59,636 nt of DNA from Candidatus Micrarchaeota archaeon (GCA_021813385.1 JAKAKT010000100.1:1-59636); one strand, 5' to 3'. Shown: positions 15,783-59,411, numbered from the stretch's first letter. A program made the numbers and translations. Notes: generated from the letters alone by a model not told the origin.

Positions 15783-15829
15783 GGCTATATTTAAATACCT
15801 GTATTGTATAAACTTATACAAGTGATTGA

Positions 15830-16433: not shown

Positions 16434-16492
16434 AGCAAGGCCAGGCTCCAGCACGCTAAGGTATTTATACATCCCAACAGAATGTTCTCTCT

Positions 16493-45324: not shown

Positions 45325-45400
45325 CATCCAGCTCCCACCCACGCCCTTTTTTAACCTTTAAGGAGAAGTCTTACTCTGTCGGGCTAGGTTTGTGGTCCAT

Positions 45401-46810
45401 ATGAGGCAATTCAAGATTTACGGGATATCCTCCACACTTATGGTGACAGTGCTGGCAGTCGGCTTCATAATCTACATAGTGTTCAACGACATCCTCGCTT
45501 TCCTCGTGTGGCTCCTGGTAGTTTTCTTCGTTGTCATTCTTGCTTATACCCTTTCCCCGAAGATTTTCAGGAAGATGTCCGATACAGTCGAATTGCGCGA
45601 TACAGCCATAAGCTCGAGGAAGACCGAGATAGCGGGGCTGATATGCCACGAATGCAAGACCGCGAAATCGCTCATCGAGAAGGTTTCAGCGGAAATCGAC
45701 ACCGCGAGCGCAAAAGGCGAGCTCGACAGGCTCGGGCAGGAGCTCGCTTCAATGAAGTGCTGCAGCTCATCTTTCGAAGTAATGCCTGACGAACTGGCTA
45801 ATGTCGACATGACTTTCCTCACCACCCGTTCTGCTGAAGTGAGGGACAGGCTCGGGGCGATGAAGCGGGCGCTTGCGGACAAATACAAGACCGTTTCAGA
45901 CAAGCGGGTTGCCGAATACGAAGTTGCGATGAAGAGCCTGCGCGAAGCAGGATACGGGATGGGCGGGCTTTATGCGAAATTCGAGGCTGAGCTGTCGAGA
46001 AGCGCCTCAACCCTTGACGAGATGGCTGAGAAGGAGGGGGAGCTGTCAGACCTCCTGAAGGATGCCCTAACCGACTGCCTTGAGGAGGCGAAAAGGATTG
46101 CTTCTGAAGAATCGGGCAGGAAAGGCGCATCCGAAGTCAGCTATGCACTCGGGAAACTAACCATATCGGACGGAGAGCTGATAGAAGCCGCCTCTGAACT
46201 CGCAGCGATGAGGAAAAAGCTCCAATCAATAATGGGCGGGGATTTCTTCGCTGCGAAGGAATCAATCATCGACTCGATGGATGCGGTCCTCTTAGCTGCT
46301 AACGGCCCGGGATTTTCCGATTTAAGGGAAAAGCTCGCGAAACTGCGCGATTCAGTGAACCAGCTTAAGGATCCCGGGAAGCTAGGCAGGCTCAAGGAGA
46401 CCGAGAAAGAATACCGGGAGCTGGCCAAGACATCCATTGAGGAACTGTCGGCAAAAGCACTTGCGATGAAGGACGAGCTCGATTCCTATAAGCCACCAAG
46501 GGAAATGCAAGCGAAGCTGCCTCAAAAAATAGTTGCACCTGGGGGCGGCACTTCAGAATTCACCAAGAAGATTTCCTCAATGCTAAAGGAGCTCTCTCCG
46601 GAAATCGAAGAGCTAATCCGCAACGTAAAAATAATGAGGAGCTACCAGAAGGCCGAAAGGCTCATCGACGCGAGGCTTGCCGAGAACAAAAAAGTCCAAG
46701 CCAGGGATTTAGACATAAAATACCCGGAGGTATTTTTCATGCTCTACAAGAAGAAGCACCCAAAAGTTAAACTAGTGGAAGGGCCTGAACCAAAACTTTT
46801 CGAGGAATGA
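45401..46810 (+). CDS. Membrane-anchored (2 TM) long helical/coiled-coil protein
   Basis: Two N-terminal hydrophobic helices, then about 410 aa of Glu/Lys/Ala/Leu-rich sequence; upstream of the tubulin-like gene. Confidence 0.75.
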   Translation: MRQFKIYGISSTLMVTVLAVGFIIYIVFNDILAFLVWLLVVFFVVILAYTLSPKIFRKMSDTVELRDTAISSRKTEIAGLICHECKTAKSLIEKVSAEIDTASAKGELDRLGQELASMKCCSSSFEVMPDELANVDMTFLTTRSAEVRDRLGAMKRALADKYKTVSDKRVAEYEVAMKSLREAGYGMGGLYAKFEAELSRSASTLDEMAEKEGELSDLLKDALTDCLEEAKRIASEESGRKGASEVSYALGKLTISDGELIEAASELAAMRKKLQSIMGGDFFAAKESIIDSMDAVLLAANGPGFSDLREKLAKLRDSVNQLKDPGKLGRLKETEKEYRELAKTSIEELSAKALAMKDELDSYKPPREMQAKLPQKIVAPGGGTSEFTKKISSMLKELSPEIEELIRNVKIMRSYQKAERLIDARLAENKKVQARDLDIKYPEVFFMLYKKKHPKVKLVEGPEPKLFEE

Positions 46811-46913: not shown

Positions 46914-48365
46914 ATGGCGAAAAAAGAGCGGGAAGGGACAGAGTGGGGGATGATTGCATCGGGCGAGGGAGCCAACAAGATAGCAATCCAGTACCTCGCG
47001 GAATTCCAGAGCAAATACATGAGCGACAGGATTCTTTTGTTGAATACTACGGCATCCGACATCCGGCCTGAGAAGGCATTTGGCGCGAGGCTGACTCCGG
47101 AGTTCCAGTCGATTCTCCAGAAGATAAAGAAGGAGAAGACCTGCATTTTCGGTTCTGCCCCATCGGGGGCAGGGAATGTCTGGAAGATAGGCGAAGAAGA
47201 GGCTGCGAAGGACTTCGAGACAATCAGGAGATATTTCGCGAACTCCCAGCTCGCCCAGGCAGACGTCATACTGGGCTTAGCAACACTTGGTGGAGGGACA
47301 GGGAACGGCAGCTTGCCTTACATCATAAGCCAGCTCAAGAACAAGATGCCGACAGCAGCCCAAAGCAACTACATCTCGCTCGGCATCTGGCCGTTGAACT
47401 CAGAGGCCTCCCAGAGGCACTTCAATGCGGTATGCGGATTCACGAGGCTCCTTAAGTATGGCGAAGGGGGAAAAAGGAACAGTGAGCTCGTGCTAATTGC
47501 TCACAACAGCCAGGTTGCGGACCTCGTGGGGTTGCAAGCACAGGGCCCTGCCCAAGACAAGTTCTACCTCATAAACCGCGAAATCATAAAGGCGATGGAC
47601 ATGATGGTGGCTCCGAGCGGGAAGGCTTCGGAAGCGACAATCGATGTGGCGGATTACTACCAGCTCCCGACGTCATTCGGAGTCTACCACTTCACCCCGT
47701 GCATCTCGTGGGACAACGACCCCGATGTCATCGGCCTCGAGGCAGGCGTGGAACTCGCCCTCAGGAGCCCGATGTGCCCCCTCGAGCCGAAGACTGCGAC
47801 GATGGCATACTTCATAGTCCGCGCCCCGGAGAAAAAGCTCAGGGACGGGACGTTCACACAGGAGGGTCTCGAGGATGCAGCAAGGAAGCTCTCCTCCAAA
47901 TTCATGGCTGGGAGCCAGGGCGGGCTTGTGCGCTACTGCAGCCTCACGTCGAAAGAAGGAGACGGGTTTGACGCCATGGTCCTCCTGGGCGGCTTCAGCC
48001 TGAAAAAATTGCTCGCAGGAAGCATAGGGAAATTCAAGTCATTCTCGGAGAACCTGAAAAGAAGCGGGGATGCACTCGAGCTCAAGGATGACGAGCACCC
48101 GAACATACGGGCGGCAATCAAGCCAGAGGAGCTTGAGATGATTGAGGGCTGGCTCCGGGACTATTCCAAGAAGACCGAGGAACTCATAAGCAAGGCAAGG
48201 AGGGGCGGCGGGCCTGACGAGGAGATGCTGGAAGGCTGGATGAGGGAAGAGGCTAAGGCAAGGCCGAAAGCCGATTCGCAAAGCCAAGCGCCCAAACCAG
48301 GCGACCAGGCGAAATCGCCAAAGGGCCCCGCACCCCAAAGAAAACCAAAAAAGAGGAACGGGTAA
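46914..48365 (+). CDS. Divergent tubulin/FtsZ-superfamily GTPase
   Basis: T1 SGEGAN, T2 LNTTASD, T3 GAGNVWKIG, T4 LGGGTGNG, T5 WP..SE, T7 TIDVAD; disordered basic tail. Confidence 0.85.
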   Translation: MAKKEREGTEWGMIASGEGANKIAIQYLAEFQSKYMSDRILLLNTTASDIRPEKAFGARLTPEFQSILQKIKKEKTCIFGSAPSGAGNVWKIGEEEAAKDFETIRRYFANSQLAQADVILGLATLGGGTGNGSLPYIISQLKNKMPTAAQSNYISLGIWPLNSEASQRHFNAVCGFTRLLKYGEGGKRNSELVLIAHNSQVADLVGLQAQGPAQDKFYLINREIIKAMDMMVAPSGKASEATIDVADYYQLPTSFGVYHFTPCISWDNDPDVIGLEAGVELALRSPMCPLEPKTATMAYFIVRAPEKKLRDGTFTQEGLEDAARKLSSKFMAGSQGGLVRYCSLTSKEGDGFDAMVLLGGFSLKKLLAGSIGKFKSFSENLKRSGDALELKDDEHPNIRAAIKPEELEMIEGWLRDYSKKTEELISKARRGGGPDEEMLEGWMREEAKARPKADSQSQAPKPGDQAKSPKGPAPQRKPKKRNG

Positions 48366-48369
48366 TCCC

Positions 48370-49224
48370 ATGCAGCTCATACTGGTTATCGTCCTCCTTT
48401 CCCTTCTCGCCCTGATAATGCTCGCAGTGCTCGCCCTCATCTTCTTCGGGATAAGGAAATCAAAGGACACGAGAGTTCAGTTCTCAGTGCTGGTTGTTTC
48501 GAGCTCAGGAGCCCCGCTCGAGGGAGTCGATGTGAAGCTCGGTGATGAGATTGCGGTGACTGATTCATACGGGAAAGCCAATTTCGCAGCCGACCCGGGG
48601 GAGAAGGAGCTCCTCATAATAACTGACGGGCATGCGGAGTTCAGGCAAAAAATCAGGGTCGGTGAGGAGAAGCTTTTCCAGGCGAGGCTCGCAAAGGACA
48701 AACCGCTCCCAGAGGCAAAGGAGCTTGAGGAAGCGATTTCGTCTGCGAGGAGGGGGAGGCAGGAGATAGGCAACGGCTACAACCCCGCAATCCCAGACTA
48801 TCTGTTCAACATCTGCCTGGCGGTCCACAAGCTCGCGATTGATGAGGCGAAGAGCGAATCTGACTCAAAGGTCCGCTCGGAATCGCTGAAAAGCGCCGCA
48901 TACACGGTTTCCCAAACGTCGAAAGGGATGATTGAGAGAAGGAACCTCTCGCTCTATGCGAAGGCGAAAGGGAGGAAGACGAGGGCAGTCGAGTTGCCGG
49001 CCCCGCGCTCTCCCGACATATTCTCTGCAAAGCAAAAGCTCGGCCAGGTCGACCTCCTAATCACGCACAGCACCGGGAAAAGCTCAATCTTCCCCCCGCT
49101 GATTCTCTGGAAAACTGCGCAGAAGCTCCTTGCGAATCCGACAGTTTTCAACATACGGCTCGCGACATTTTTGCTCGATTCAGCTGAGAAAATGATTGCC
49201 GAACTTGGGGATTATCTGGTTTAG
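48370..49224 (+). CDS. Single-TM protein with a PEGA/carboxypeptidase-regulatory-like Ig domain and a helical C-domain
   Basis: Hydrophobic N-terminus then RKSK; VVSSSGAPLEGVDV...TDSYGKANF...PG; starts 4 nt after the tubulin-like stop. Confidence 0.72.
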   Translation: MQLILVIVLLSLLALIMLAVLALIFFGIRKSKDTRVQFSVLVVSSSGAPLEGVDVKLGDEIAVTDSYGKANFAADPGEKELLIITDGHAEFRQKIRVGEEKLFQARLAKDKPLPEAKELEEAISSARRGRQEIGNGYNPAIPDYLFNICLAVHKLAIDEAKSESDSKVRSESLKSAAYTVSQTSKGMIERRNLSLYAKAKGRKTRAVELPAPRSPDIFSAKQKLGQVDLLITHSTGKSSIFPPLILWKTAQKLLANPTVFNIRLATFLLDSAEKMIAELGDYLV

Positions 49225-50846
49225 TAGCCAATCCTGACTCCTCGCTCCGCACCGACATCATATATGCTCAAGCCGAGCGCCTTTTCCCTCTCGAGAGTCT
49301 CAGCTATCTGAGCAAGGAGGCGCTTCTTAAGCGCCAAGTATTCCTCCCGCGGATATTCAACATTGCCGACAGCGTAGCGCAGGCTTTTCGCATTGAAGCA
49401 GAACATGCACTCCTGGAGGTTCTCGCAATTGTGGCAGAAGTAGCAGTCGCTGCAGGTGTTCGAGCTGTCAACCTCGAAACATCGGTTTAGCTTGCTTGAG
49501 TTATGGCACTTAATGCAGAATTTTGAATGAAAAAGCAGCTGGGAACCGAAAACATATTCGGAATTTCTCGGCCAATAGCAATAAGCCACATATCTACACA
49601 CATAGGCCAGCGAACTCCGAAAGGCATGGGAAGAGTTGTTGCCATAGTTGCTGCATTCCACAATGTCGAAATTGTTGGTGCCATGCACATCCTCGGTCGT
49701 CGTGTATTTCACGCCCTTCAGCTTTTCCCTTGCATTGGAAAAATCAAAATCCAGCAGGTCCGATTCCGAGATACTGCATTCCCCGAGTTCCAACGCCTCC
49801 TCCAACCCCACTGCGTTGTCTTTGATAGCAGCGAACGCAGGCACGGCAGCCAAGTATATGTCCTTGCCACTCACAGCGGATTTCGATGGTATGACACTAT
49901 CCACGTGCTCGCTCAGCCACTTCTCGAATGCAACGAGCGGAGCCAGTTTTTTGCCGAACAAGATTCCGCACGTATCTTTAAATGCGGAGTTTAGCTCGTC
50001 TGAAGGCCCTTTTTTGGAAACGCCGGGTTTGTTGGAAAGTGTGGGTTCGTTTTTCTTCAGCTTCGGCGCCGTTCCCGGGGCCGCGATTAGGTCCACTATT
50101 CCCGGAATCGTTTTTTTCTCCTTAAGCATCTCCCTGATTTCTCCAACGAGCTTATCCTTCAAGTCCAGGTATTTGTCTTTTGGAAGAGAAAGGTTTCCGA
50201 TGCCATAATGCCTGTTTCGCAGATTAAATGAGAACATGCAATTGGAGCACGACCTTAAGTTGGCGGTGAAATAACAGTCGGCCGAATCGAAGGTATTGAG
50301 GTTTTCCATGGAACGACTGAGCTGATAGATGTAATAACCGGCTATGACGAACCTGGACCCGACATCTTGGCTTATGCCGAAAGCGTACTCGGTATGGCGC
50401 GTTTGGTTGGAAAATGCCACGAATCTGCTTCCTTCATGGACCGTTCGTGACTTATAGACGAATGAAGAATCAATGCACTTGTCTGAAAGTTCAATCTCGC
50501 TGGAGTTTCCGAGAACCACGTCCCCGGCATAGTAAAATTTTTCCCTAAGCGCGGCCAGTATCGAATCGATGTCCTTTACCTGGTTTATGTCAAGCCTCGT
50601 GCCTTTGTCCATTTCATGGTACTCGGCATTCTCATCGTTGCTGATGTATTTTGCGTTGTCGTCCATTCCCTTGACTGGGGAGAACACCACCGGCTTTCCG
50701 GATATTGCGGATTTTTTTATGCTAAGCCCCCCAGCGTATCGGCCGAGGTATTTTTCAAAATCTTCGAGCCCCCCAATCTCATCTCCGAGCAGGGCCCTGC
50801 AGACATCCTCCCAGGCTTTTTCTAAAAGCTCGCGACTACGGTCCAT
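49221..50846 (-). CDS. Cys/Ser-rich repeat protein with two internal repeats
   Basis: DINQVKDIDSIL, CSNCMFSFNLRN..YGIGN, CSDCYFCHNCENLQECMFCFNAK...YAVGN; paralog of 28874-30472. Confidence 0.8.
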   Translation of the reverse strand: MDRSRELLEKAWEDVCRALLGDEIGGLEDFEKYLGRYAGGLSIKKSAISGKPVVFSPVKGMDDNAKYISNDENAEYHEMDKGTRLDINQVKDIDSILAALREKFYYAGDVVLGNSSEIELSDKCIDSSFVYKSRTVHEGSRFVAFSNQTRHTEYAFGISQDVGSRFVIAGYYIYQLSRSMENLNTFDSADCYFTANLRSCSNCMFSFNLRNRHYGIGNLSLPKDKYLDLKDKLVGEIREMLKEKKTIPGIVDLIAAPGTAPKLKKNEPTLSNKPGVSKKGPSDELNSAFKDTCGILFGKKLAPLVAFEKWLSEHVDSVIPSKSAVSGKDIYLAAVPAFAAIKDNAVGLEEALELGECSISESDLLDFDFSNAREKLKGVKYTTTEDVHGTNNFDIVECSNYGNNSSHAFRSSLAYVCRYVAYCYWPRNSEYVFGSQLLFHSKFCIKCHNSSKLNRCFEVDSSNTCSDCYFCHNCENLQECMFCFNAKSLRYAVGNVEYPREEYLALKKRLLAQIAETLEREKALGLSIYDVGAERGVRIGY

Positions 50847-50994: not shown

Positions 50995-51756
50995 ATGGAC
51001 GAGCAAATCCTCAGGAAGCTGGGCATGACAACTGGAGAGATAAGAACTTATCTCGCGATGCTCGAGCTCGGCTCAAGCACAACTGGCCCGATTGCAAATG
51101 CGGCCCAGATTTCAAGGTCGAAGGTTTATGTGGTTCTCGATAGGCTCGAGAAAAAAGGGCTTGCCTCCCACGTTGAACAGAATGGGATGAAATACTTCCA
51201 GGTCGCTGACCCAATAAGGATAAAGAGCTACATACGCGAGAGAGAAGAGGAACTGAAAGAAATAGGGAAGGAGTTCGATTCCTCTGTAGAAAACCTAAGA
51301 ACGCTCTATAAGGAAACTGGAAGAGTCAAGTCAGTTTCAGTTTACCAGGGGCTTAAGGGGCTCCAGACCGCGCACGAGCACACTTACCTTAAAGTGAAGA
51401 AAGGGGAGACCTACGATTACCTTGGCGGCCCGCGCTTCCAGCCAGAATCGCACCACCGATATTGGAAAAAAGACCACCTAAAGAGAGTTGCAGCCGGAAT
51501 AAAATGCAGGCTCTTGTTCAACAAGGGGACCCCGCGAGAAACGCTTAGGAACAGGAATTCGTTCTGGGGCTGTGATGCGAGGTATATGCCAATAGACATA
51601 TACTCTCCTGCGTATTTTTTGGTTTACAAGGATACGGTTATGATGACGGTTTCAGAAGAGAACCCAATCGTCATAGAAATAGTAAGCAAAGAAATCGCCG
51701 AGGCTTTCAGCACTTATTTCGAGGAGTTCTGGAAGAGGAGCGTTCCTTTCAAGTAG
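50995..51756 (+). CDS. TrmB-family transcriptional regulator
   Basis: LGMTTGEIRTYLAMLELG...SRSKVYVVLDRLEKKGL; VYQGLKG; C-terminal FEEFW. Confidence 0.9.
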   Translation: MDEQILRKLGMTTGEIRTYLAMLELGSSTTGPIANAAQISRSKVYVVLDRLEKKGLASHVEQNGMKYFQVADPIRIKSYIREREEELKEIGKEFDSSVENLRTLYKETGRVKSVSVYQGLKGLQTAHEHTYLKVKKGETYDYLGGPRFQPESHHRYWKKDHLKRVAAGIKCRLLFNKGTPRETLRNRNSFWGCDARYMPIDIYSPAYFLVYKDTVMMTVSEENPIVIEIVSKEIAEAFSTYFEEFWKRSVPFK

Positions 51757-53371
51757 CTTTCTTTTTCTTCTTTTCCGCTTTCGGCACAAGCTCGACCGTG
51801 CAGGTCGTCGAATCGCCCTCGCACGCCAATTCGGTCTCATAAACCTTGTAGTTCGGGTGAATGACGGTGAGCTTGTGGGCCCCAAGCTCGACCTCGAGGG
51901 AGCCCATCCCGCCCTCGCTTGTCCGTTCACTCTTCCTGCCGATAACCACTTCCGCATCCTTAATGGGCTTTCCTTCAGAAACCACTGTCACTTTGACTGT
52001 TCCAGTCCCGCCTTTTTTCGCCTGAAGCCCGACCGAGATGGCGGAGTGCTTCTCCACTTGCAAGGCTCCGATGTATGGCTCATGGTTCGGCGACAAGATT
52101 TTCATCTGGTGCCTCCCCTCCTTAAGTGCATAGAGGCTTCCAGCAGGCCTCCGTATGCCCTCAATCTCGATTTCAGCCTTTCCATCGGAGTCAGGAACAT
52201 CCACCCTGGTAAGGAACATCCTTGGTATTGACAAGGCATCCGCCTTCTCCTGCTTGTAGTGCGTCGCCTGCGAGCGGAGCTGCGCGATGCGCTCGACCTT
52301 CTCCTCCGGATAGGTGAAAAGGAGGACCGTAGAGACGATGTTCCGCTTTGTCACCGAGACCCCGAGATGGGTCTGCTTCATCGCGGAGCGCTCTGAAAGG
52401 AAAGCCCTGATGATGTCAATGGGAGCAAGCTCGCCCGAGCTCTCAAGATAATGGGGCGGGAGCCTCAGGAGGGCGAGATTCTTCTCGCATTCTTCAGGCT
52501 TTGCGCCCTCGACACTGAGCTTCAGGAACGATTCGTAAAGGAGCTTTATCACGTCGATTTTCTTCCATCCGCCGATAGGGACCAGGTAGTTGAACAGCCC
52601 CCTCGCCCTTTCGCTCGAGCGGGCAAGGCAGGCATAAGCAACTCGCCCCCGCAGGGTGGTCGCAGTTATTATGTCATTTATGTCGATTACAGGCGGGTTG
52701 CCTGCGAAGGCCGCCGGGTTTATCCGTTCAGTAGCGCTGCCGAGGGCGAGTTCGATTATTGCCCGGGCCACATAATCGTTGTATCTCCTGTAGGCATTGG
52801 CCATATTTCCCGTGTAAGCAATTCGCTGATTGTCCACGAGAATAATGGAATTTGCGATTTCTGAAAGCCTTTTCAAGCTAACGTATGCGTTGCTAGCAGC
52901 GAGGCTCCCCTCTTCGCCAGCAGGCAAAACGGCGATTGCGATGACGGGAATTCCGAGCGATTTGAAAGCAGCAGCCACCACCGGCCCGGCCCCGCTCCCT
53001 GTGCCGCCCCCGAGGCCGAAGAGCACGAAAGCGCAGGAAATCTTCTTCGCGTCGACTGTGTTCTCGAGGAAATGCCCGGCAATCGCTTCCTGGAGCTCCC
53101 CGTAATGGGCGAGCGCATCACGCTCGGCCTTGTCCCTGTTCTGGCCATACCCCCCTGCAATCAAGTCATCGAAGTTCTTCTCGCTCCCATTAACGAATCC
53201 GTTCTTTGAAAACCCCAGCCAATTCTCTCTCGAGATATTCTTCAGGTTAAGCAGGTCGCTCGTTGCCGAGTTTATCGCAAGGGGCTTTGAAGCGGCCCAT
53301 ACGTTCTTCTCCCAGAGCACAGAATCGAGGATTCCCCCCCCGCACTGCCCGACGGAGACAAACGCATACAT
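51749..53371 (-). CDS. CetZ/tubulin-like GTPase fused to C-terminal PEGA/Ig-like domains
   Basis: VGQCGG, AINSATSDL, GLGGGTGSG, VLPAGEEG, LVDNQ, VIDIND; about 160 aa of beta-rich C-terminal repeats. Confidence 0.85.
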   Translation of the reverse strand: MYAFVSVGQCGGGILDSVLWEKNVWAASKPLAINSATSDLLNLKNISRENWLGFSKNGFVNGSEKNFDDLIAGGYGQNRDKAERDALAHYGELQEAIAGHFLENTVDAKKISCAFVLFGLGGGTGSGAGPVVAAAFKSLGIPVIAIAVLPAGEEGSLAASNAYVSLKRLSEIANSIILVDNQRIAYTGNMANAYRRYNDYVARAIIELALGSATERINPAAFAGNPPVIDINDIITATTLRGRVAYACLARSSERARGLFNYLVPIGGWKKIDVIKLLYESFLKLSVEGAKPEECEKNLALLRLPPHYLESSGELAPIDIIRAFLSERSAMKQTHLGVSVTKRNIVSTVLLFTYPEEKVERIAQLRSQATHYKQEKADALSIPRMFLTRVDVPDSDGKAEIEIEGIRRPAGSLYALKEGRHQMKILSPNHEPYIGALQVEKHSAISVGLQAKKGGTGTVKVTVVSEGKPIKDAEVVIGRKSERTSEGGMGSLEVELGAHKLTVIHPNYKVYETELACEGDSTTCTVELVPKAEKKKKKAT

Positions 53372-53468: not shown

Positions 53469-54389
53469 TCAAGGTTTTTCTCTATTATCCACTCTATGCC
53501 ATTCAATCATTTTCTTAAGGCCTTCCTCAAGCGAATATTTCGGTTCCCAACCGAGAATCCGCTTTGCCTTCGAGATGTCAGCGCACCAGTGTTTCGGCTC
53601 GAAAGTCCGTTTCTGCGCAACTCCCCACGTAGGCATCAGCCTCGAGTCAAAAAGCTTTCTCACAGTTTCAGCGACTTGTTCAACCGAGTGCTCTTTTCCG
53701 CTCCCAATGTTGAATGCCTCTCCTGCGAGCCCGCTGTCGGATATCTTGACAACAGCATCGACCACGTCATCGACAAACACGAAATCCCTCACGTTCTTTT
53801 TAGATGCCAGCTGCGGGGACTGCCCTGCTGCGTAGGAGTTAATGAGCGTCGGAATCAGCCTGGTCGAGGCTTCGTAATAGCCATACACAAGAAAGAACCT
53901 CGCAATGTTTATCGGAAGGTCCAGCGCAACGGCCTCGTCAATAAGAAATGAAGAAGCCGCTGCCTTTGACAACGAGTACGGGTCTGGGGGCCGAAGCTCG
54001 TTGCTCTCAGTTATGGGCTTGTCGACAAGCCCATACTCGAAGCCAGAGCCAGAGAAAACAAAGCTCCTGAAACCTGTTTTTTTCACTGCTTTTAGGAGGT
54101 TAACGGTTCCTTGAACATTGCTCTGGAATATGGTGGAAATGTCGGTCTGAGTCGGGTAAACGCCATAGCCAGCGAGATGGAAAATCTTTTCAGGCTTTAT
54201 CTTGCTGACAGCTCGCTCAACAGAGGCGTAAACCGCCAGGTCAGCGTGGTGGGGCGTGTAACGGACTCCGGTCAATCTCCAGGTGTTGGCGCTTGGCCTA
54301 TGCACAAGGTGGACATCGTTATCTTTCGAAAGATGTCTTGCTAGGCATGCCCCTATGAAACCCGTTCCCCCAGTTATCAGAATGCGCAT
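53469..54389 (-). CDS. NAD-dependent nucleotide-sugar epimerase/reductase (extended SDR)
   Basis: ITGGTGFIG, FHLAG, YSLSK, RDFVFVDD, FNIGSG. Confidence 0.93.
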   Translation of the reverse strand: MRILITGGTGFIGACLARHLSKDNDVHLVHRPSANTWRLTGVRYTPHHADLAVYASVERAVSKIKPEKIFHLAGYGVYPTQTDISTIFQSNVQGTVNLLKAVKKTGFRSFVFSGSGFEYGLVDKPITESNELRPPDPYSLSKAAASSFLIDEAVALDLPINIARFFLVYGYYEASTRLIPTLINSYAAGQSPQLASKKNVRDFVFVDDVVDAVVKISDSGLAGEAFNIGSGKEHSVEQVAETVRKLFDSRLMPTWGVAQKRTFEPKHWCADISKAKRILGWEPKYSLEEGLKKMIEWHRVDNREKP

Positions 54390-54449
54390 GTCTTCACGGG
54401 CACTACTATTCGGTTGAATCAATATAAAGGTTATGACTCTTTTATCTTC

Positions 54450-55541
54450 ATGGACAAAATCTTGTCAATATGCATTCCAACCTATAACCGGAAGGAAAAG
54501 CTCTCAAGGCTCCTAAACAACATCAAGGACGAAATTCGCGGCCTTGAAGGCGAGATTGAAGTTTGCATATCAGACAATGGTTCTGATGATGGAACTGCCG
54601 ATTATCTAAAGACGGAATGGGGCAATCCAAATTTCGAGCTGAAATTCAACTTTTCTGAGAAAAACGAGGGTTTTGATGTTAATGTGTTGCGGGCAACAAG
54701 GATGGCGAGAGGGAACTATCTATGGACGCTCGGAGATGACGATGGGGTTGTCAAGGGTTCGCTGAAAAAGCTCCTTGCATTCTTGAAATCAATAAGGGAT
54801 GACCACGTAAAAGTTGTCTATCTGAATAGGACGGCGAACGAGGGGGTTCCTGGCAGTCAGCCCCGGAATGGGCAAGCATATTCATCAAGCCGGGAATTGT
54901 TTACTGCTCCTATGAGCTTTATGGGTTTCATCGTGTTCAGGCGGGCAGCTTTGGAGGAGCTGGACCAAAATGCTCTCGAGAGAGGAAGGGGCACGAATTA
55001 TATGCACGCCTGGGCTCTCAGGTTAATCTCCCTAGCGAATCCGGGCGCCAAAGCAATCCATTTCGAATTCCCAGCTTGCCTTACAGGAACAGAGTCAGAG
55101 CAATCGTCCACATTGAGGGCCCAGCTGGTATTCTCGAGGGCTTTTTTTCACCAGTTCTGGACTCTTCTCTGGCTGAACAAGTCCTCCAGCTACTTCATCA
55201 GAAATTACCTGAGCTTCACTATGAAAAAACTATTTTTCTCGGCGTTCTCTCCCTTTTTTGAAATATTATGCGAGCGGTCCTTCAGGGGCCGAAGCAAAAA
55301 CAGGCTCGGACCAACCTTTTTCATCCAAACCTTTTCAGTATTCGGCCCAATAATCTACACATACTACCTGTTTTTGAGAATTGTTCCTGACTTCGGAGCC
55401 AGCTTCCTCTTAGGGCTCATGCTCTGGCTTCTCAAAACCGCGCGCCTTACCCGGGAAACAGATTACGCGTATTGGAAGAAGTTCTGGTCAAAGAAAAACG
55501 GGTCTGACTTCTTGCGGCAAGATTCTAGCAAGGTTCAATAA
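54450..55541 (+). CDS. GT2 glycosyltransferase (RfbV/abequosyltransferase-like)
   Basis: LSICIPTYNR, CISDNGSDD, NEGFDVN, YLWTLGDDD. Confidence 0.87.
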   Translation: MDKILSICIPTYNRKEKLSRLLNNIKDEIRGLEGEIEVCISDNGSDDGTADYLKTEWGNPNFELKFNFSEKNEGFDVNVLRATRMARGNYLWTLGDDDGVVKGSLKKLLAFLKSIRDDHVKVVYLNRTANEGVPGSQPRNGQAYSSSRELFTAPMSFMGFIVFRRAALEELDQNALERGRGTNYMHAWALRLISLANPGAKAIHFEFPACLTGTESEQSSTLRAQLVFSRAFFHQFWTLLWLNKSSSYFIRNYLSFTMKKLFFSAFSPFFEILCERSFRGRSKNRLGPTFFIQTFSVFGPIIYTYYLFLRIVPDFGASFLLGLMLWLLKTARLTRETDYAYWKKFWSKKNGSDFLRQDSSKVQ

Positions 55542-55588
55542 GCGATATACAACCAAACGTTATTTATTCTGTCTTTCAAAATACTGCC

Positions 55589-56563
55589 ATGACGAGAGAG
55601 ATAATAACCGTCCTCGGCCCGCACAGGGTTTACGGGTCAGTGAAATCAGTCCTCAATAACATTGCAGAGAGGAGGGGGATGGCCACGAAGGACATCTCTC
55701 CGGGGTCCCCTGGTGCAATTTCGTTGTATACCGGCAGGAAGACAATATGGCACACCCCAACGAATCCCAGCCGAGAAAACTTATACGTTACCAATTCACC
55801 ACTTTTTTCCCTCGAGGCATGGGAAATCCTGGCAAAGGGAGTCCCGTTGATGGTGTATGAGGAATATTTCCCAAGAGGGAGGCGTAAGGATTCCATCTCG
55901 AAAATGCTCCTCAAACCATTTAAGAACATTCCCTTCATCTGCCCAACAATGCGAACACACGAGTTCCTGCTGCAAACCGGCATAATGTCCTTCGCAATAC
56001 CTCCGGCCACAAGGAGAATAAAACAATCGAGGAGACGGGAGCACATCCTTTTCATCGGCAGGGCAGAGGAGACCAAAAACCCCATGTTTTTCTTCCGCTT
56101 GGCAAGGCTATTGAAAGACGAGCACTTCGTTTTTATCGGCCGCGGAGCCCTCTCGCAGAAACTGAGGGCAGAAGCAAAGGGCATAAGGAACCTGGAATAC
56201 CTTGATTTCGTAGAAAAGGATGAAGAACTAACGAAATATTATTCAAAGGCTAAGCTATTCGTCCACACTGCGACCAGCGACCCGATAGCATTCGTCATTG
56301 TTGAGGCCTTAAGCGCTTCAGTCCCGGTAATCACTTCCCCCGGAGTTGGGGCTTCCGATTTCCTTCCGGAGAATTGGGTGATTAAGGATTTCCTGGAGTC
56401 CAGCTGGGCAAGGAAAATCCGCGAAATTACCGAGAACCAGGATGCAAGCATCGAACTTGCGAGGCAGGCATACGAAAGCAACCACCTGGATATCGGGGAC
56501 CCGTATTTCAAGAAGATCGAGGGCGAGCTTGAACTCGCCATAAGCGAGCAATTGGGCTGCTAG
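55589..56563 (+). CDS. GT4-like glycosyltransferase
   Basis: LFIGRAEETKN, DPIAFVIVEALSASVPVI. Confidence 0.82.
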   Translation: MTREIITVLGPHRVYGSVKSVLNNIAERRGMATKDISPGSPGAISLYTGRKTIWHTPTNPSRENLYVTNSPLFSLEAWEILAKGVPLMVYEEYFPRGRRKDSISKMLLKPFKNIPFICPTMRTHEFLLQTGIMSFAIPPATRRIKQSRRREHILFIGRAEETKNPMFFFRLARLLKDEHFVFIGRGALSQKLRAEAKGIRNLEYLDFVEKDEELTKYYSKAKLFVHTATSDPIAFVIVEALSASVPVITSPGVGASDFLPENWVIKDFLESSWARKIREITENQDASIELARQAYESNHLDIGDPYFKKIEGELELAISEQLGC

Positions 56564-57594
56564 CAGCCGAGAAGATTCGAGTAGAATGTTTTCATCTTTT
56601 TCGCAATAATCGGCCAATCGTGGCCTTCAGAGCTCTTGAGGGCGTTTTTCGAAAGCAATCCAAGGAATTTCCTGTCATCCAAAAGCATTTTTGCACTCGA
56701 GCGAAGGGCTTCAGGCGTATTCTCTATCACGAGCCCATTGCCCCGGTTTTCCACAAAGTCAAGGGGTCCTCCCGCCATCTTATAAACAACCACCGGCTTT
56801 CCGAGCGCGAGCGCCTCGACCCCGACAATCCCGAACGGCTCGTATTTGGAAGGGAAAAGAAACACTTTTGAAGATTTTATCGCGCTCAGGACAACACGTC
56901 TGCTCGGGGCAACAATGCACTTTATCCCGCCCTTCCTGCATAGCTCCCGGACTTTTCTCTCAACAGCCTTCTCGCCATACCCCATAAGCATCACGTCCAG
57001 CCCTGTGCCCGAGAAGGCATTAATGAAGTCAAAAACCCCTTTCTGCTCGCTGAACCGGCCGACCATTATGGCATCGGAACGAAGGTCGTCCCGTTCAACC
57101 GCTTTCCTTATCTCCCCAAGGGGAACCCCATTCCCGATAACAGCCTTAACAGGAACGCCCCCCTGTTCAGCCTCATCCTTGATTTTTTTGCTGACAGCTA
57201 CAGTGTTGCCTATTCTCCTCAATGCGGTCTTGTACGGGGCAGCCATAACCATGCTCAAGGCCTTCATCCTGGGGGTAGTCTCAAACTCGTGGTGATAGAA
57301 TGCGTGGATTGTCGAAACAGCCTTGCCCTTAAACCTGCCGAGATTATAAAAAAGCGAGAATGTCGTGGCAGTTGAATGGAAATGGACGAGGTCTGCTTTG
57401 CTCTCGCGGAAGCACTTCCCAAGATTAAAAAGGCTGATTCGCCTTATCCCGCCAGCGTCTTCCCCCACTTTCCAGCTCCATCGCTCGACATCGATTCCGA
57501 GCTCCTCATAGCATCTCGAGATATGGTAGACATGCTGCTCGACTCCGCCCTCCTTCGGCTCTGGGTGGAAAGGCCCGACAATTGCCACTCGCAT
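56560..57594 (-). CDS. GT4 glycosyltransferase
   Basis: GGVEQH, VGRFSEQKG, PSKYEPFGIVGVEALALGKPVV. Confidence 0.92.
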   Translation of the reverse strand: MRVAIVGPFHPEPKEGGVEQHVYHISRCYEELGIDVERWSWKVGEDAGGIRRISLFNLGKCFRESKADLVHFHSTATTFSLFYNLGRFKGKAVSTIHAFYHHEFETTPRMKALSMVMAAPYKTALRRIGNTVAVSKKIKDEAEQGGVPVKAVIGNGVPLGEIRKAVERDDLRSDAIMVGRFSEQKGVFDFINAFSGTGLDVMLMGYGEKAVERKVRELCRKGGIKCIVAPSRRVVLSAIKSSKVFLFPSKYEPFGIVGVEALALGKPVVVYKMAGGPLDFVENRGNGLVIENTPEALRSSAKMLLDDRKFLGLLSKNALKSSEGHDWPIIAKKMKTFYSNLLGC

Positions 57595-57649
57595 AACCGG
57601 CTTTTCTCACCCAAAATTAAAAAAACAGTTGTTCGCGCAATCGGGCAAA

Positions 57650-58390
57650 CTACAGCCTCTTCTTGAAAATTCCAATGAGCTTCTGCACGCTGTCCGCAAC
57701 AAAATAAGGCAATACCGCGCCCTGCTCTTTTTTTATCAGCCTGACCTCAGGCTCGAACTTCTTTCGCTGCGACATCGTCTTAGAGCCAGGGTGCAGCCTA
57801 AACGCCCCGAGAATGACGCCCGGCAAATAGGCAATCTTGCACCTCTTGGACACCCTTATCAGGAAGTCGTAGTCAATCGCATAGTGGAATCGCTCATCCA
57901 AATACCCGACTTTCCCGAAAACCTCCTTCCTGAAAAATATGGTTTGCTGCGGAATCATCTGGAAATAATTGAGGTTCCTAAAATAACTGAACTCAGCAGT
58001 ATGCCAGATGGCGAGCCCCTTGTCATTCTCGTCTATGAACCGGCAATCCGAATACACCATGTCGACGTCGGGACGGCTCTCCAGATATTCGACAGCGGTT
58101 TTGAATGCCCCCGGCTCGAATGCATCGTCCGAGTTTATCCACCCGATTATGTCCCCCCGGGCATTTCTAAATCCCAAGTTAAGTGCTGCTGAAAGGGGGA
58201 ATCGCTCCCTCTTGGCAACCAATCGGATTTCAGGGTATTTTTTTATTATGCTGACCGTCTCGTCATCCGAGCAGTCGACAATGATGTGCTCGTAATTTGG
58301 GTAATCCTGGTTTTTTACTGAGAGTATCGTCCTTTCGATATACGCCGCCTGGTTGTAGGATGGGGTGACTATGCTTATCATTTTCATCAT
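57650..58390 (-). CDS. GT2 glycosyltransferase
   Basis: ISIVTPSYNQ, GWINSDD, DYDFLIR. Confidence 0.93.
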   Translation of the reverse strand: MMKMISIVTPSYNQAAYIERTILSVKNQDYPNYEHIIVDCSDDETVSIIKKYPEIRLVAKRERFPLSAALNLGFRNARGDIIGWINSDDAFEPGAFKTAVEYLESRPDVDMVYSDCRFIDENDKGLAIWHTAEFSYFRNLNYFQMIPQQTIFFRKEVFGKVGYLDERFHYAIDYDFLIRVSKRCKIAYLPGVILGAFRLHPGSKTMSQRKKFEPEVRLIKKEQGAVLPYFVADSVQKLIGIFKKRL

Positions 58391-58426
58391 CTCACCCGTG
58401 GAATGTACTAAGTTGTTGTTTTTTCA

Positions 58427-59407
58427 TCAGTTCACCCGTTCGTTTTCAAGATATGGGCTGTAGCGGATGAGGCCCAGCTTCCTTTTGAAAAAAACTTCCA
58501 AGTACCCGGACCTGGCAAAATACATTGAGAGGTAGCCAGCTGATTTCACCCCTTCCCACCCGTCCAAAAACGCAAGATAGCGGGCAAGGCCATACAAGAA
58601 ATATACGGGGTATCCAAGGAGGATGAAGAACGTCATCACAAAAAAATTCTTTGATAAGTACTGTGCCTTCTGCCGCCTCTCAATCTGGATGTATACCTCG
58701 TGCTTTCTTCGTATCCTCTCCTCGCCTGGGGTGTAGTAAAGATGGTCATATTCCACGTTCGAGTAAAAGTGCCTTCCTTCTATCCTTGGCGGCTCATGGA
58801 TTATCACATTCCAATTTATTTTGCAGCGTTTCCTGTAAAAGCGCGGCTCCGGATGCGGCCTGTAAAACCCGTATCTGAACCACTTGCCAGGAGCATAAAA
58901 ATGCTTTGATATGAGCCATATGACGTCGTAATCGTCCTGCTTGGCGAGCTTTGGCAGCTCCTGGCGGGCTCCTCCAGTAAGCCGTTCGTCGGCATCTATG
59001 TGCAGTATCCATTCGTAACTTGCGTTGTCGTTCAGCAACGTCCTTTCAATATCGACCCAGCTCTTGCTTCCCTTCCCCTCGCTCTTGAAATTCCTCTCAG
59101 GGTCTTTCAGGGGTATTATCTTGGCTCCAGCCTTCCTCAGAATTTCCGCAGTGTGGTCGCTGCTCTCGTGGTCAATGGCAACTATCTCATCCACGACGCC
59201 CTTCAGGCTGTCAAGCATCCCGGGCAGGTTCTTCTCTTCGTTCTTCACCATAATGCATGCGGATATCCCGGGCTTGGGCTTTCCGGCCACGATGCTGTCA
59301 TTCGTGGTGCCAGCCGCATAATCGTCTCTTTTGGAATTCTCCTCCTGCTGTTCCAGCTGCCGAGCCTTAGGATTGGAAGCATTCAGTTTCATTTTTGTCT
59401 TAGCCAT
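58427..59407 (-). CDS. GT2 glycosyltransferase (beta-1,4-glucosyltransferase-like)
   Basis: CIMVKNEE, DHESSDHT, WILHIDADE, IHE. Confidence 0.88.
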   Translation of the reverse strand: MAKTKMKLNASNPKARQLEQQEENSKRDDYAAGTTNDSIVAGKPKPGISACIMVKNEEKNLPGMLDSLKGVVDEIVAIDHESSDHTAEILRKAGAKIIPLKDPERNFKSEGKGSKSWVDIERTLLNDNASYEWILHIDADERLTGGARQELPKLAKQDDYDVIWLISKHFYAPGKWFRYGFYRPHPEPRFYRKRCKINWNVIIHEPPRIEGRHFYSNVEYDHLYYTPGEERIRRKHEVYIQIERRQKAQYLSKNFFVMTFFILLGYPVYFLYGLARYLAFLDGWEGVKSAGYLSMYFARSGYLEVFFKRKLGLIRYSPYLENERVN

Positions 59408-59411
59408 CGTC

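Follow-up and report, generated by a model that had tools for sequence, protein, structure and literature searches.

Within the tubulin superfamily, FtsZ serves cell division, CetZ serves archaeal cell shape and the eukaryotic tubulins form microtubules, and sampling of the steps that connect these families is poor. The BtubA/B and AtubA/B systems each consist of two diverged paralogues that are encoded together. In the T3 loop, the tubulin consensus is GAGNNWAKG and that of FtsZ is GAGANPEVG, and the tubulin signature pattern in PROSITE reads [SAG]-G-G-T-G-[SA]-G. Two published surveys (Brown & Duggin 2023, PMC9856176; Santana-Molina et al. 2023, PMC9871819) report "non-canonical" proteins of the kind analyzed below, none of which is known to have been characterized.

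We studied a stretch of 59,636 nucleotides (the window) from a genome labeled Candidatus Micrarchaeota archaeon (GCA_021813385.1, JAKAKT010000100.1:1-59636), which carries a gene for such a protein, called T here. All coordinates are counted from the first letter of the window.

The T gene and its signature loops

The reading frame of T and its loops are as follows.

46914..48365, plus strand: T, a 483-aa divergent putative GTPase of the tubulin/FtsZ superfamily (open reading frame and translation, ATG start)
46959..46976, plus strand: T1 loop SGEGAN, residues 16-21 (family consensus S-G-E-G-[GA])
47166..47192, plus strand: T3 loop GAGNVWKIG, residues 85-93, a tubulin-like feature
47289..47309, plus strand: T4 signature GGGTGNG, residues 126-132 (G126-G128, G130 and G132 invariant)
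47502..47507, plus strand: T6, H197-N198 (Asn invariant, His subgroup-specific)
47640..47657, plus strand: T7 loop IDVADY, residues 243-248, in which the two acids of the FtsZ-type D-x-x-D are kept
47676..47699, plus strand: strand S7, FGVYHFTP, residues 255-262 (H259 in 46/47 family members, T261 in 41/47)

The frame also contains an alternative in-frame TTG at 46902; the closest homologues of T start with MAKK, in line with the ATG at 46914. Every loop string quoted in an earlier, sequence-only reading of this DNA was found in the translation. Homologues of T form 103 clusters, with 63 representative clusters at E≤1e-3 among 1.84 billion proteins, and the conservation of the family spans lineages as far apart as Halobacteria and Altiarchaeales.

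Conservation was scored over 47 family members. The sequence-only reading had called the T3 loop tubulin-like and unlike that of FtsZ, and this description held: G-[AT]-G-N occurred in all six T-family rows of the comparison, and the Asn was absent from the eight FtsZ rows (LGAG[GS]xP) and the seven CetZ or CetZ-like rows (HGVGADN and variants). Within the family, G85 was present in 47/47 members, G87 in 46/47 and N88 in 43/47, and position 90 was occupied by Trp in 24/47 or Phe in 18/47. The target T has GAGNVW, and the Hydrothermarchaeota members have GAGNNW. In T4, where T129 is conserved alongside the invariant glycines, N131 was found in 41/47 members and Ser or Ala in 4/47, so that the family departs from the PROSITE tubulin signature at the [SA] position. 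In T1, G17 is invariant and E18 is present in 37/47 members, compared with Gln in CetZ and in the CetZ-like paralogue Z2 (see below) and Gly in FtsZ. The T1 Glu and the T4 Asn, a position held by Ser, Thr or Ala in most relatives, are unusual changes that may affect GTP hydrolysis in T.

N198 of T6 was present in all 47 members, mostly with Asp (20 members), Ser (15) or His (5) before it. The non-canonical HN that had been pointed out is therefore not a feature of the whole family: His197 is confined to the window's subgroup, so most of the family has an ordinary DN or SN. The T7 loop aligned with N-[LI]-D-F-A-D of the FtsZ rows, with D244 conserved in 41/47 members and D247 in 42/47. Residues invariant throughout the family were G17, G85, G126-128, G130, G132, N171, N198 and N221. 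Judged by this conservation across the 47 members, the loop motifs are not chance matches. The altered nucleotide handling that had been offered as one reading of the unusual loops is not indicated, since the glycines of T1, T3 and T4, the Asn residues expected to contact the base, and D244 and D247 are all conserved, and Z2 keeps the T7 D-x-x-D as well.

Family placement and predicted fold

The target T scored 32.7 bits against PF00091 (cut-off 33), over residues 68-182 only, and all 47 family members matched this model at E≤0.01 (best, 5.2e-13). Against the FtsZ equivalog TIGR00065, T reached 28.8 bits, far below the cut-off of 295.2. FtsZ_C (PF12327), CetZ_C (PF21011), Tubulin_C (PF03953) and Tubulin_2 (PF13809) matched 0/47 members at E≤0.01. 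Positive controls covered two of these models: FtsZ_C matched 4/4 FtsZs of the same genome (86 to 108 bits), and CetZ_C matched six CetZs of the compared genomes (98 to 270 bits) and also P0164 (184 bits). Sequence profiles thus support the earlier assignment of T as a likely GTPase of the tubulin/FtsZ superfamily that is neither FtsZ nor CetZ. The genome carries four canonical FtsZ genes besides T, and a haloarchaeal homologue (P0079) carries the source name "FtsZ family protein, noncanonical." As for FtsZl1, which we take to be the Tubulin_2 family of Pfam, the T family gave no PF13809 match, and the scanned neighbors had neither vWA nor OmpA domains. Genes for vWA-domain and OmpA-family proteins are reported to accompany FtsZl1 (Makarova & Koonin 2010, PMC2875224).

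The sequence-only reading would have been contradicted by a robust placement of T within CetZ or FtsZ. No such placement was obtained, and the T family formed a separate clan in two trees, both of which were built without sequences of tubulins, artubulins, OdinTubulin, BtubA/B or TubZ. In both trees, the 17 FtsZ rows and the 19 T rows each made up one side of a branch with an SH-aLRT of 100. The CetZ clan (six CetZ_C-positive rows) was weakly supported (SH-aLRT, 82 and 38), and T lay outside it, attached next to it. With 3.25 changes per column, T had by far the longest stem in the trees, which makes attraction artefacts likely.

A profile of the T family was compared with the sequences of solved structures. 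The best matches were CetZs (4b45, 4b46 and 3zid), with 68.7 bits for CetZ1, 66.8 for CetZ2 and 51.1 for the third; M. jannaschii FtsZ reached 62.4 bits, tubulins scored 37 to 48 bits (best, 47.7) and TubZ/RepX 46.7 to 47.5. The tubulin matches were limited to about positions 67-249 of the profile, that is, to the GTPase domain, whereas those of CetZ2 and FtsZ reached the C-terminal domain. T fits none of the curated families, and in this profile check, which had been suggested with a position between CetZ and tubulin in mind, CetZ and archaeal FtsZ outscored the tubulins.

An AlphaFold2 model of T (pLDDT, 88.2; pTM, 0.86) showed the two-domain fold of the superfamily, with a Rossmann-like GTPase domain, helix H7 and a C-terminal activation domain; a strand was modeled at residues 259-268. 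In structural comparisons with VIA, the model matched OdinTubulin (7evb) with a Z of 37.9 (375 aligned residues; rmsd, 2.7), BtubB with 37.3, beta-tubulin with 36.6 (371 aligned) and CetZ1 with 36.5 (319 aligned; rmsd, 2.4). Aligned residues ranged from 319 to 378 over OdinTubulin, BtubB, beta-tubulin and CetZ1/2, and from 364 to 378 for the tubulins; the Z gaps between tubulins and CetZ were below 1.5, mostly below 1, which counts as a tie by the standard of the tool. The best Foldseek match was CetZ (4b46; E, 9.8e-18; TM, 0.82 on the target). The C-terminal end of the model comprises two regions.

48024..48260, plus strand: C-terminal helices of the AlphaFold2 model, namely, helix 371-383, hairpin 388-402, long helix 404-430 and helix 435-449
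48261..48362, plus strand: Lys/Pro-rich low-confidence tail, residues 450-483 (pLDDT, 50-58)

By alignment ranges, the tubulins reached residues 426-432 of the T model and CetZ1 only residue 379. A look-up of tubulin helices H11/H12 had been suggested: residues 9-432 of the model span residues 2-431 of the tubulin chain, a correspondence of ranges and not of residue-level equivalence. The Lys/Pro-rich tail is confined to the window's subgroup (alignment columns 560-615).

Gene neighborhood and a predicted membrane anchor

T is flanked by genes that recur beside its homologues. Those of the window, with the surfaces predicted to join T to one of them, are the following.

45392..46810, plus strand: CC, a membrane protein that has a pair of hydrophobic helices at its N terminus, helical repeats over some 350 aa and a small domain at its C terminus
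46628..46723, plus strand: predicted T-binding surface in the C-terminal domain of CC, residues 410-441 counted from the ATG at 45401
47706..47765, plus strand: predicted CC contact surface of T, the S7-H9 loop and helix H9, residues 265-284
48370..49224, plus strand: N2, one N-terminal transmembrane helix, a CarboxypepD_reg-like beta-sandwich and a helical domain
51749..53371, minus strand: Z2, a 540-aa CetZ-like second paralogue of the tubulin superfamily (PF00091, 71.8 bits)

The best solved relatives of Z2 are CetZ2 and CetZ1, and in the window's subgroup Z2 has a C-terminal PEGA/CarboxypepD_reg-like extension (about residues 385-540). T and Z2 were merged by single-linkage clustering via intermediates and were separated by bit score; BLASTP gave no significant alignment between them. 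A Z2 homologue was present in 50/80 T loci and in 36 of the 43 loci with at least 5 kb on both sides of T, in these cases either 1.6 to 6.1 kb upstream on the same strand or 2.2 to 8.1 kb downstream on the opposite strand. The subtrees of T and Z2 showed the same major groupings, sharing a main split that separates Hydrothermarchaeota, Altiarchaeum and the window's group from Methanoperedens and the haloarchaea. Among loci with at least 5 kb on both sides, neither Z2 nor CC adjoined T in 6/6 ANME-2 loci and the one Altiarchaeum locus, so the module is not obligatory as a gene cluster; Z2-clade genes occurred elsewhere in the Altiarchaeum and ANME-2 genomes that had no Z2 nearby. Haloarchaea have a third paralogue, Z3, which bears a zinc ribbon and has a clearly degenerate T4 (V-T-K-G-T-G-C-G).

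N2 begins 4 nt past the T stop codon, and its cluster was present in 43/81 loci. The N2 of the window corresponds to the C-terminal, post-transmembrane part of the 800- to 1,000-aa N2 proteins of other lineages and lacks the extracellular part seen there. Homologues of c4 and c3, two membrane proteins with large extracellular domains, lie on another contig of the same genome (C65), unlinked to T. The conserved neighbors of T are membrane and extracellular proteins and not replication, partition or phage genes. Searches of the neighbors against NCBIfam and PHROGs gave no useful matches, the only PHROG match being weak (E, 2.9e-4) and without an assigned function. Three candidates for module membership were rejected: a 541-aa Cys-rich ORF at 49221..50846 on the minus strand lacks homologues throughout the 80 loci, the TrmB gene has a homologue in one locus alone (L008), a fragment, and the CdhC gene beside T in ANME-2 loci is a lineage-specific adjacency. 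A promoter and terminator scan, which does not cover archaeal promoters, gave counts at the locus no higher than those of shuffled sequences.

CC, whose probable start is the ATG at 45401, has a homologue directly upstream of T in 51/81 loci, often with abutting stop and start codons. Its topology was derived from hydrophobicity and the positive-inside rule (transmembrane segments and flanking positive charges). Complex prediction gave ipSAE values of 0.80, 0.78 and 0.80 for T with CC in three runs, and the best of three controls reached 0.00. That mark was reached by 116/157 solved complexes and 2/215 mismatched pairs, counts that hold only roughly here since the alignments for the complex prediction were self-made. 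The contacts agreed fully (100%) between the runs, and the partner pLDDT was at least 84. Residues 410-441 of CC are among its most conserved stretches (rank 9 of 376 windows), and for the contact patch of T conservation is unremarkable (rank 253 of 413 windows). No solved look-alike of the CC fold was found by Foldseek at E≤0.001, PRC1 appearing at a nonsignificant E of 0.2 to 0.45; the predicted contact is thus unlikely to have been copied from a known structure. A wide VIA search with CC gave a best Z of 9.2, to short helical pieces, which is below the caution level of the tool for helical proteins. Also below this level were EzrA (4uxv; Z, 8.0; 337 aligned; rmsd, 18), usable as an analogy only, and the winged-helix domains that aligned with CC residues 410-469 (Z, 6.7 to 7.0). 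Structure prediction with controls thus points to a contact between T and CC.

The distribution of the T family is patchy, which suggests transfer. A sample of 151 genomes from the phylum of the window contained full-length T and full-length Z2 in a single genome, that of the window itself. Most T loci are chromosomal, on contigs that reach 2.1 Mb and carry housekeeping genes (pyrG among them) next to T, and one locus of 80 is plasmid-borne (L065; Natrinema, 742 kb). Cultivated haloarchaea with orthologous modules belong to genera that include Natrinema, Halorubrum, Haloarcula and Halorussus.

T is co-inherited with another gene of the tubulin superfamily (Z2) and with the membrane-anchored helical protein CC, and it is thus probably part of a membrane-attached cytoskeleton. 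The explanation that we favor, and judge reasonably probable as a whole, is that T represents a distinct, rare archaeal family, neither FtsZ, CetZ nor bona fide tubulin, whose GTP-binding members would build a membrane-tethered filament system with CC and the co-inherited module. From its conserved residues and fold, T would most likely bind and hydrolyze GTP and polymerize head to tail in a GTP-dependent manner like its relatives. CC would probably keep it on the cytoplasmic side of the membrane: anchored by two transmembrane helices and extended by a long helical stalk, CC is predicted to dock with its small C-terminal domain on the S7-H9 side of the C-terminal domain of T. The module would further include Z2, the bitopic N2 with its cytoplasmic beta-sandwich, and c4 and c3, and by analogy it would probably couple the cytoplasmic filament system to the envelope, affecting cell shape or surface organization. 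This envelope coupling is the weakest step, since the N2 of the window lacks the extracellular part and c4 and c3 are unlinked to T.

Alternatives and comparison with known systems

T could also be a stem relative of tubulin, placed between CetZ and the tubulins proper (Asgard, eukaryotic and artubulins), with its T3 loop, the Asn of H7, the His-Phe of S7 and the long C-terminal helices inherited and not convergent. The T3 motif G-A-G-N-[NV]-W, absent from the compared FtsZ and CetZ rows, speaks for this, as do the VIA ranking, with tubulins at the top and aligned through the long C-terminal helix, and N221 of H7, which T has in common with the CetZ rows where FtsZ rows have Asp. Santana-Molina et al. 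2023 (PMC9871819) report groups from Altiarchaeota, Methanosarcinia and Halobacteria with tubulin-like N-terminal blocks that branch with tubulins in one tree; they conclude that these groups have an unstable placement and stand nearer to CetZ than to tubulin. Since the T profile prefers CetZ and FtsZ, Tubulin_C is missing, the VIA scores are tied, the T3 Trp is limited to about half of the members, T7 is D-x-x-D as in FtsZ and Z2, and the long stem invites attraction artefacts, we regard a stem position as improbable. Only slightly less improbable is a more elaborate proposal, in which T, Z2 and Z3 would be the filament subunits of an undescribed trans-membrane machine, with a mixed polymer, a two-helix anchor, bitopic links to beta-propeller or Ig-like extracellular domains and transfer as a unit between phyla, T being the closest tubulin-lineage relative outside Asgard archaea and thaumarchaea, with a stem-tubulin T3 and an H12-like helix.

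The earlier suggestion that T is one partner of a heterodimer gains indirect support from the co-inheritance of Z2 and is compatible with the membrane-tethered filament system favored above. T and Z2 would then form an obligate heterodimer or mixed protofilament in the manner of alpha/beta-tubulin or BtubA/B. They are neighbors in most loci with sufficient flanks, both were carried by 6/6 genomes checked for the pair, they occur together in the one genome of the phylum sample, their subtrees share the main split, and they are too diverged to be redundant copies. However, both keep the acidic T7 residues, whereas a partner of the beta-tubulin type is without the catalytic residue; the two genes are unlinked in ANME-2 and Altiarchaeum, and genes whose products formed separate filaments of one machine would be expected to co-occur just as much. 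We therefore hold an obligate pair to be possible but doubtful. Z2 filaments might instead be regulated or capped by T as a degenerate pseudo-GTPase that neither hydrolyzes nor polymerizes, for which the unusual T1 (G-E-G-[GA]) and T4 (GGGTGNG), the low and partial PF00091 match and the very long stem could be cited; the loop glycines, Asn 171, 198 and 221 and both T7 acids, though, are conserved across lineages in the pattern of a constrained active site, and the clearly degenerate T4 of the module belongs to Z3, which makes this very unlikely. Least likely of all, to the point of being hard to credit, is that T segregates the DNA of a mobile element as a GTPase of the TubZ/PhuZ kind, the winged-helix-like C-terminal domain of CC serving as a TubR-like adaptor. 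The profile matches to TubZ/RepX, the Natrinema plasmid, the patchy distribution and the sub-caution winged-helix alignments of CC are in its favor, but TubZ scores below CetZ and FtsZ, most loci are chromosomal and beside housekeeping genes, CC is predicted to be membrane-anchored, and the conserved neighbors are of the membrane and extracellular kind, with a single weak PHROG match.

A membrane-tethered filament system of T and CC thus remains our preferred explanation, and it bears on the purpose that a further accessory tubulin system besides CetZ serves in archaea and on whether tubulin-like loops are ancestral or convergent. As modules occur in cultivated haloarchaea, predictions on T are directly testable. 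In the consulted parts of the surveys (PMC9856176, PMC9871819) and in the literature, we found no description of the Z2-CC-T module, of its membrane anchor or of the T family in Micrarchaeota-labeled or Hydrothermarchaeota genomes. By description, T agrees in taxa and in its tubulin-like N-terminal blocks with the "non-canonical," "CetZ-like" and "Halo.Tub" groups of those parts, and the coiled-coil neighbors and near-tandem copies described in PMC9871819 match the T loci, again on a comparison of descriptions only.

Among the characterized systems, CetZ resembles T in its H7 Asn, in being an archaeal non-division paralogue alongside FtsZ and in being the nearest clan by tree path. T differs from it in T1 (G-E-G-G versus G-Q-[AC]-G-G), T3 (G-A-G-N-x-W versus G-V-G-A-D-N) and T7 (D-x-x-D versus D-S-S-E), in the lack of CetZ_C, in the extra C-terminal helices past residue 379 and in its gene neighborhood. 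FtsZ shares the T7 D-x-x-D and a profile match into the C-terminal domain, and its tethers (FtsA, ZipA, SepF and EzrA) offer an analogy for T and CC, that of a soluble polymer held by a dedicated anchor; like EzrA, CC would be N-terminally anchored with long helical repeats. Unlike in FtsZ, the anchor of T is predicted to contact the globular C-terminal domain, on its S7-H9 side, and not a C-terminal peptide, and the FtsZ models TIGR00065 and FtsZ_C set T apart as well. Tubulins share the T3 loop, the top structural scores and the alignment to the C-terminal helices as well as, in BtubA/B and AtubA/B, the joint encoding of two diverged paralogues. Their profile scores and the missing Tubulin_C separate them from T, as do its FtsZ-type T7, its short T5 ("WP..xE," as in FtsZ and CetZ), its T4 Asn and its predicted membrane-anchored partner. 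The T family would be a fourth, deeply separated archaeal type of the tubulin superfamily, one in which catalytic residues like those of FtsZ go together with long C-terminal helices and a T3 loop of the tubulin kind.

Nucleotide-site motifs and fold of T

The divergent tubulin/FtsZ-superfamily gene T (46914..48365, + strand) comprises 483 codons from an ATG that agrees with the closest homologues, which begin MAKK...; an alternative in-frame TTG lies 12 nt 5' of it. All the motifs quoted in the sequence-only reading are present in the translation of T:

residues 16-21, SGEGAN, loop T1
residues 85-93, GAGNVWKIG, loop T3
residues 126-132, GGGTGNG, loop T4
residues 197-198, HN, loop T6
residues 255-262, FGVYHFTP, strand S7

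Among 47 family members, G17, G85, G126-128, G130, G132, P135, P160, N171, R178, N198, N221, G360, and Y417 are invariant. We compared the nucleotide-site loops by aligning T with paralogues from six genomes. T3 reads G-[AVT]-G-N in 43/47 members, followed two residues on by Trp (24) or Phe (18), whereas FtsZ reads L-G-A-G-[GS]-x-P and CetZ H-G-V-G-A-D-N. The tubulin-like, un-FtsZ-like T3 is thus genuine and extends across the whole family. T1 (G-E-G-[GA]) and T4 (...G-N-G) are peculiar to the T family (Asn131 of T4 in 41/47 members). The HN of T6 is non-canonical in the window's protein but not family-wide, His197 occurring in only 5/47 members and being mostly replaced by D or S. His259 of the YHFTP strand is kept in 46/47. 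In helix H7, T shares an Asn with CetZ where FtsZ has Asp, while its T7 is D-x-x-D, as in FtsZ, with both acids kept across the family (D244 in 41/47, D247 in 42/47). As its loops resemble different families at T3, H7, and T7 and are its own at T1 and T4, T is a mosaic. Past their last helix, many T proteins also terminate in a short conserved peptide of L-x-x-W-G-F type (e.g., ...KLVEWGF; columns about 560-575 of the family alignment A1), which by analogy with the FtsZ C-terminal peptide could be a candidate docking peptide; the window's T has ...MLEGWM... at this place, then a Lys/Pro-rich tail.

The match of T to the Pfam tubulin/FtsZ GTPase domain (PF00091) is weak yet real, scoring 32.7 bits over residues 68-182, where the cut-off is 33, and a scan of each member found this domain in 47/47. 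The FtsZ equivalog model gave 28.8 bits, far below its cut-off of 295, and FtsZ_C, CetZ_C, Tubulin_C, and Tubulin_2 matched 0/47 members; as controls, the four FtsZ genes of the window's genome matched FtsZ_C and six CetZs matched CetZ_C. An AF2 model made with the family alignment as input (pLDDT 88.2, pTM 0.86) retrieved CetZ1 first in Foldseek (E 9.8e-18), with beta-tubulins, OdinTubulin, and M. jannaschii FtsZ within one order of magnitude. VIA-align Z-scores to tubulins and CetZs were in essence tied.

Structure comparison of the T model by VIA-align
OdinTubulin: Z 37.9, 375 aligned residues, model 6-426
BtubB: Z 37.3, 368 aligned residues, model 9-425
beta-tubulin: Z 36.6, 371 aligned residues, model 9-432, chain 2-431
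CetZ1: Z 36.5, 319 aligned residues, rmsd 2.4, model 9-379
CetZ2: Z 36.1, 320 aligned residues, model 9-383

The T-tubulin alignments, known as ranges only, run through a long C-terminal helix (404-430, after helix 371-383); these helices may be counterparts of tubulin H11/H12. Against the sequences of solved structures, the T family profile scored CetZ1 (68.7 bits), CetZ2 (66.8), M. jannaschii FtsZ (62.4), Aquifex FtsZ (55.5), M. thermophila CetZ (51.1), BtubB (47.7), RepX/TubZ (47.5/46.7), gamma-tubulin (47.0), beta-tubulin (44.5), AtubA (44.3), and OdinTubulin (41.6); matches to tubulins end at profile position ~250, and those to CetZ2 and FtsZ reach the C-terminal domain. In a tree of 79 tubulin-superfamily proteins from the six genomes and the loci, with no tubulin sequences included (IQ-TREE, LG+C20), T formed its own clan (SH-aLRT 100), outside the FtsZ clan (100) and the CetZ_C-positive rows. 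Without the longest rows, T, Z2 (a CetZ-like paralogue), and FtsZ were each a separate clan (100 each); CetZ held weakly (38), and T joined beside it through a stem 3.25 changes per column long. Robust placement within CetZ or FtsZ, which would have made the T3 similarity convergent, was therefore not obtained in either tree.

Distribution of T and its gene neighbourhood

A word-indexed search of 5.8 billion proteins yielded 103 clusters of T homologues. Identities were 70-88% for MAGs with a Candidatus Micrarchaeota label, 43-52% for those of Hydrothermarchaeota and further euryarchaeal lineages, and 31-36% for haloarchaea, where the Natronomonas moolapensis homologue bears the source name "FtsZ family protein, noncanonical." Exhaustive phmmer over 1.84 billion representatives gave just 63 matches at E<=1e-3, the weakest being an ordinary CetZ (P0164). 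Scanning one genome per prokaryotic species, we found 80 T loci in the Micrarchaeota-labelled group, Hydrothermarchaeota/Pyrohabitans, Altiarchaeales, ANME-2/Methanosarcinales, Methanoperedens, Archaeoglobaceae, and many genera of Halobacteria, one of them plasmid-borne (Natrinema). Among 151 sampled genomes of the window's phylum, full-length T occurred in the window's genome only, and one other match was partial (74 bits). Canonical FtsZ is encoded four times in the window's genome (1.78 Mb), each copy being FtsZ_C-positive (contigs C68, C47 with two in tandem, and C11; L001-L004), and CetZ_C-positive genes are absent.

The following genes accompany T:

45392..46810, directly 5' of T, CC (two-TM helical protein)
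48370..49224, beginning 4 nt past the T stop codon, N2 (membrane protein)
49221..50846, - strand, Cys-rich ORF of 541 aa with repeated C-x-x-C-like motifs
50995..51756, + strand, TrmB-family transcriptional regulator (PF01978, 55.6 bits)
51749..53371, - strand, Z2, second divergent tubulin-like gene (540 aa; PF00091, 71.8 bits)
contig C65 of the window's genome (L119), 13750..14748 and 14730..17009, + strand, homologues of membrane proteins c4 and c3, next to each other at the contig end
haloarchaeal locus L072, 822-2492, + strand, Z3, third paralogue (same cluster in L061, L065, L067, L070, L074, L075, L078, L079, L081, and L083)

CC lies immediately 5' of T in 51/81 loci, stop and start codons often abutting. 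The usual order in Hydrothermarchaeota is N2 > c3 < c4 < Z2 > CC > T, and haloarchaeal modules add Z3 and further membrane proteins; in the window's genome, c4/c3 are unlinked from T, CC, N2, and Z2. Hydrophobicity and domain scans predict that CC has a helical body in the cytoplasm and two TM helices, and that c3 and c4 each combine a signal peptide and a C-terminal TM helix with a large extracellular region. In large forms of N2, a signal peptide and an extracellular beta-propeller are predicted together with a single TM helix and, on the cytoplasmic side, a CarboxypepD_reg-like and helical part; by the same scans, the window's N2 has the TM helix and cytoplasmic part only.

The Cys-rich ORF, with no Pfam match and no homologue in the 80 related loci, separates N2 from Z2, which are adjacent in the nearest relatives (L007-L010). 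The TrmB gene, found among related loci in L008 only, as a fragment, and Z2 lie on opposite strands and share 8 nt at their 3' ends. Past Z2, at 53469..59506, comes an envelope-glycan gene run: a Pfam NAD-dependent epimerase/dehydratase and, after it, several ORFs resembling glycosyltransferases by sequence alone. In ANME-2/Methanosarcinales loci (L035-L053, L057, L059), T is solitary and lies divergently beside cdhC (acetyl-CoA synthase beta subunit), with no CC, Z2, or N2 nearby.

The best solved relatives of Z2 are CetZ2 (E 8e-15) and CetZ1 (E 8e-14); CetZ_C matched 0/23 Z2 members, and BLASTP detected no similarity between Z2 and T. Z2 homologues occur in 50/80 related loci and in 36 of the 43 that extend 5 kb or more beyond T in both directions: Hydrothermarchaeota-like 10/10, haloarchaeal 21/21, Methanoperedens 2/2, Archaeoglobaceae 1/1, Micrarchaeota-labelled 2/2, ANME-2 0/6, and Altiarchaeum 0/1. 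Altiarchaeum and ANME-2 have Z2-clade genes elsewhere in the genome. In the other 150 genomes sampled from the phylum, neither Z2 nor T turned up at full length, which points to joint acquisition of the module. The 742-kb megaplasmid p1 of Natrinema sp. 74 (L065) carries a complete haloarchaeal module (Z3, Z2, CC, T, N2, c4, c3, c6), consistent with transfer as one unit. In the window's subgroup only, Z2 has a C-terminal extension (residues about 385-540; 51749..52220, - strand) with weak PEGA/CarboxypepD_reg-like matches; as no TM segment or signal peptide precedes it, this Z2 would be a tubulin-like protein fused to cytoplasmic beta-sandwich domains. Z3 (about 530-595 aa) starts with an N-terminal zinc-ribbon-like C-x-x-C, has a Trp-containing T3 (G-A-G-[YR]-[RN]-W), and adjoins a TM protein with zinc ribbons.

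Predicted contact between T and CC

When T (1-450) and the cytoplasmic portion of CC (62-469) were modelled as a complex, ipSAE came to 0.80, 0.78, and 0.80, with 100% contact agreement between runs and a partner pLDDT of at least 84; the best of three controls reached 0.00. This level is attained by 116/157 solved complexes and 2/215 mismatched pairs, counts that hold only roughly here because our own custom alignments were used. On T, the contact involves residues 265-284 (and 322), that is, the loop after S7 and helix H9; in tubulin, the M-loop occupies this S7-H9 position. On CC, it involves residues 410-441 in a small C-terminal domain. The CC patch is among the most conserved stretches of that protein (rank 9/376), and the T patch is not specially conserved (rank 253/413). 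The CC model (pLDDT 85.7) consists of long helical repeats in a chain and has no solved look-alike in Foldseek at E<=0.001, so the high score is unlikely to reflect a memorised known complex. EzrA matches it at Z 8.0, too weak for more than an analogy.

Interpretation and relation to known systems

The explanation that best accounts for our results is that T forms a distinct family within the tubulin superfamily, binds GTP, and probably polymerises; CC would tether it to the membrane through the predicted contact, and it may act together with Z2 and envelope-facing membrane proteins. The sequence-only reading is confirmed in its observation and partly supported in its interpretation, which had offered either a lineage between CetZ and tubulin or a subunit with altered nucleotide handling. 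An inactive subunit is argued against by the T7 acids, which T and Z2 alike conserve; the nucleotide loop of the module that is clearly degenerate is found in haloarchaeal Z3, whose T4 reads V-T-K-G-T-G-C-G in place of G-G-G-T-G. That T and Z2 form a heteropolymer is plausible, given their co-inheritance. A position on the tubulin stem is suggested by the T3 loop, the H7 Asn, and the C-terminal helices of T, but is weakened by profile scores that rank CetZ and FtsZ above tubulins, the absent Tubulin_C match, the tied VIA-align Z-scores, and the very long T stem.

T belongs to a known superfamily and, within it, to a family that surveys appear to have glimpsed but did not study. Literature searches on the module returned no description of the Z2-CC-T arrangement or anchor; as far as they show, the conserved module and predicted anchor are undescribed. 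Brown and Duggin 2023 (PMC9856176) list, without characterising them, "non-canonical" tubulin-superfamily proteins with a patchy spread that includes DPANN. Santana-Molina et al. 2023 (PMC9871819) describe groups termed CetZ-like and "Halo.Tub" from Altiarchaeota, Methanosarcinia, and Halobacteria. Their N-terminal blocks resemble tubulin, their genes have coiled-coil neighbours and near-tandem copies, and their placement is unstable; the authors consider them closer to CetZ. T, Z2, and Z3 fit these published groups, the match being by description only.
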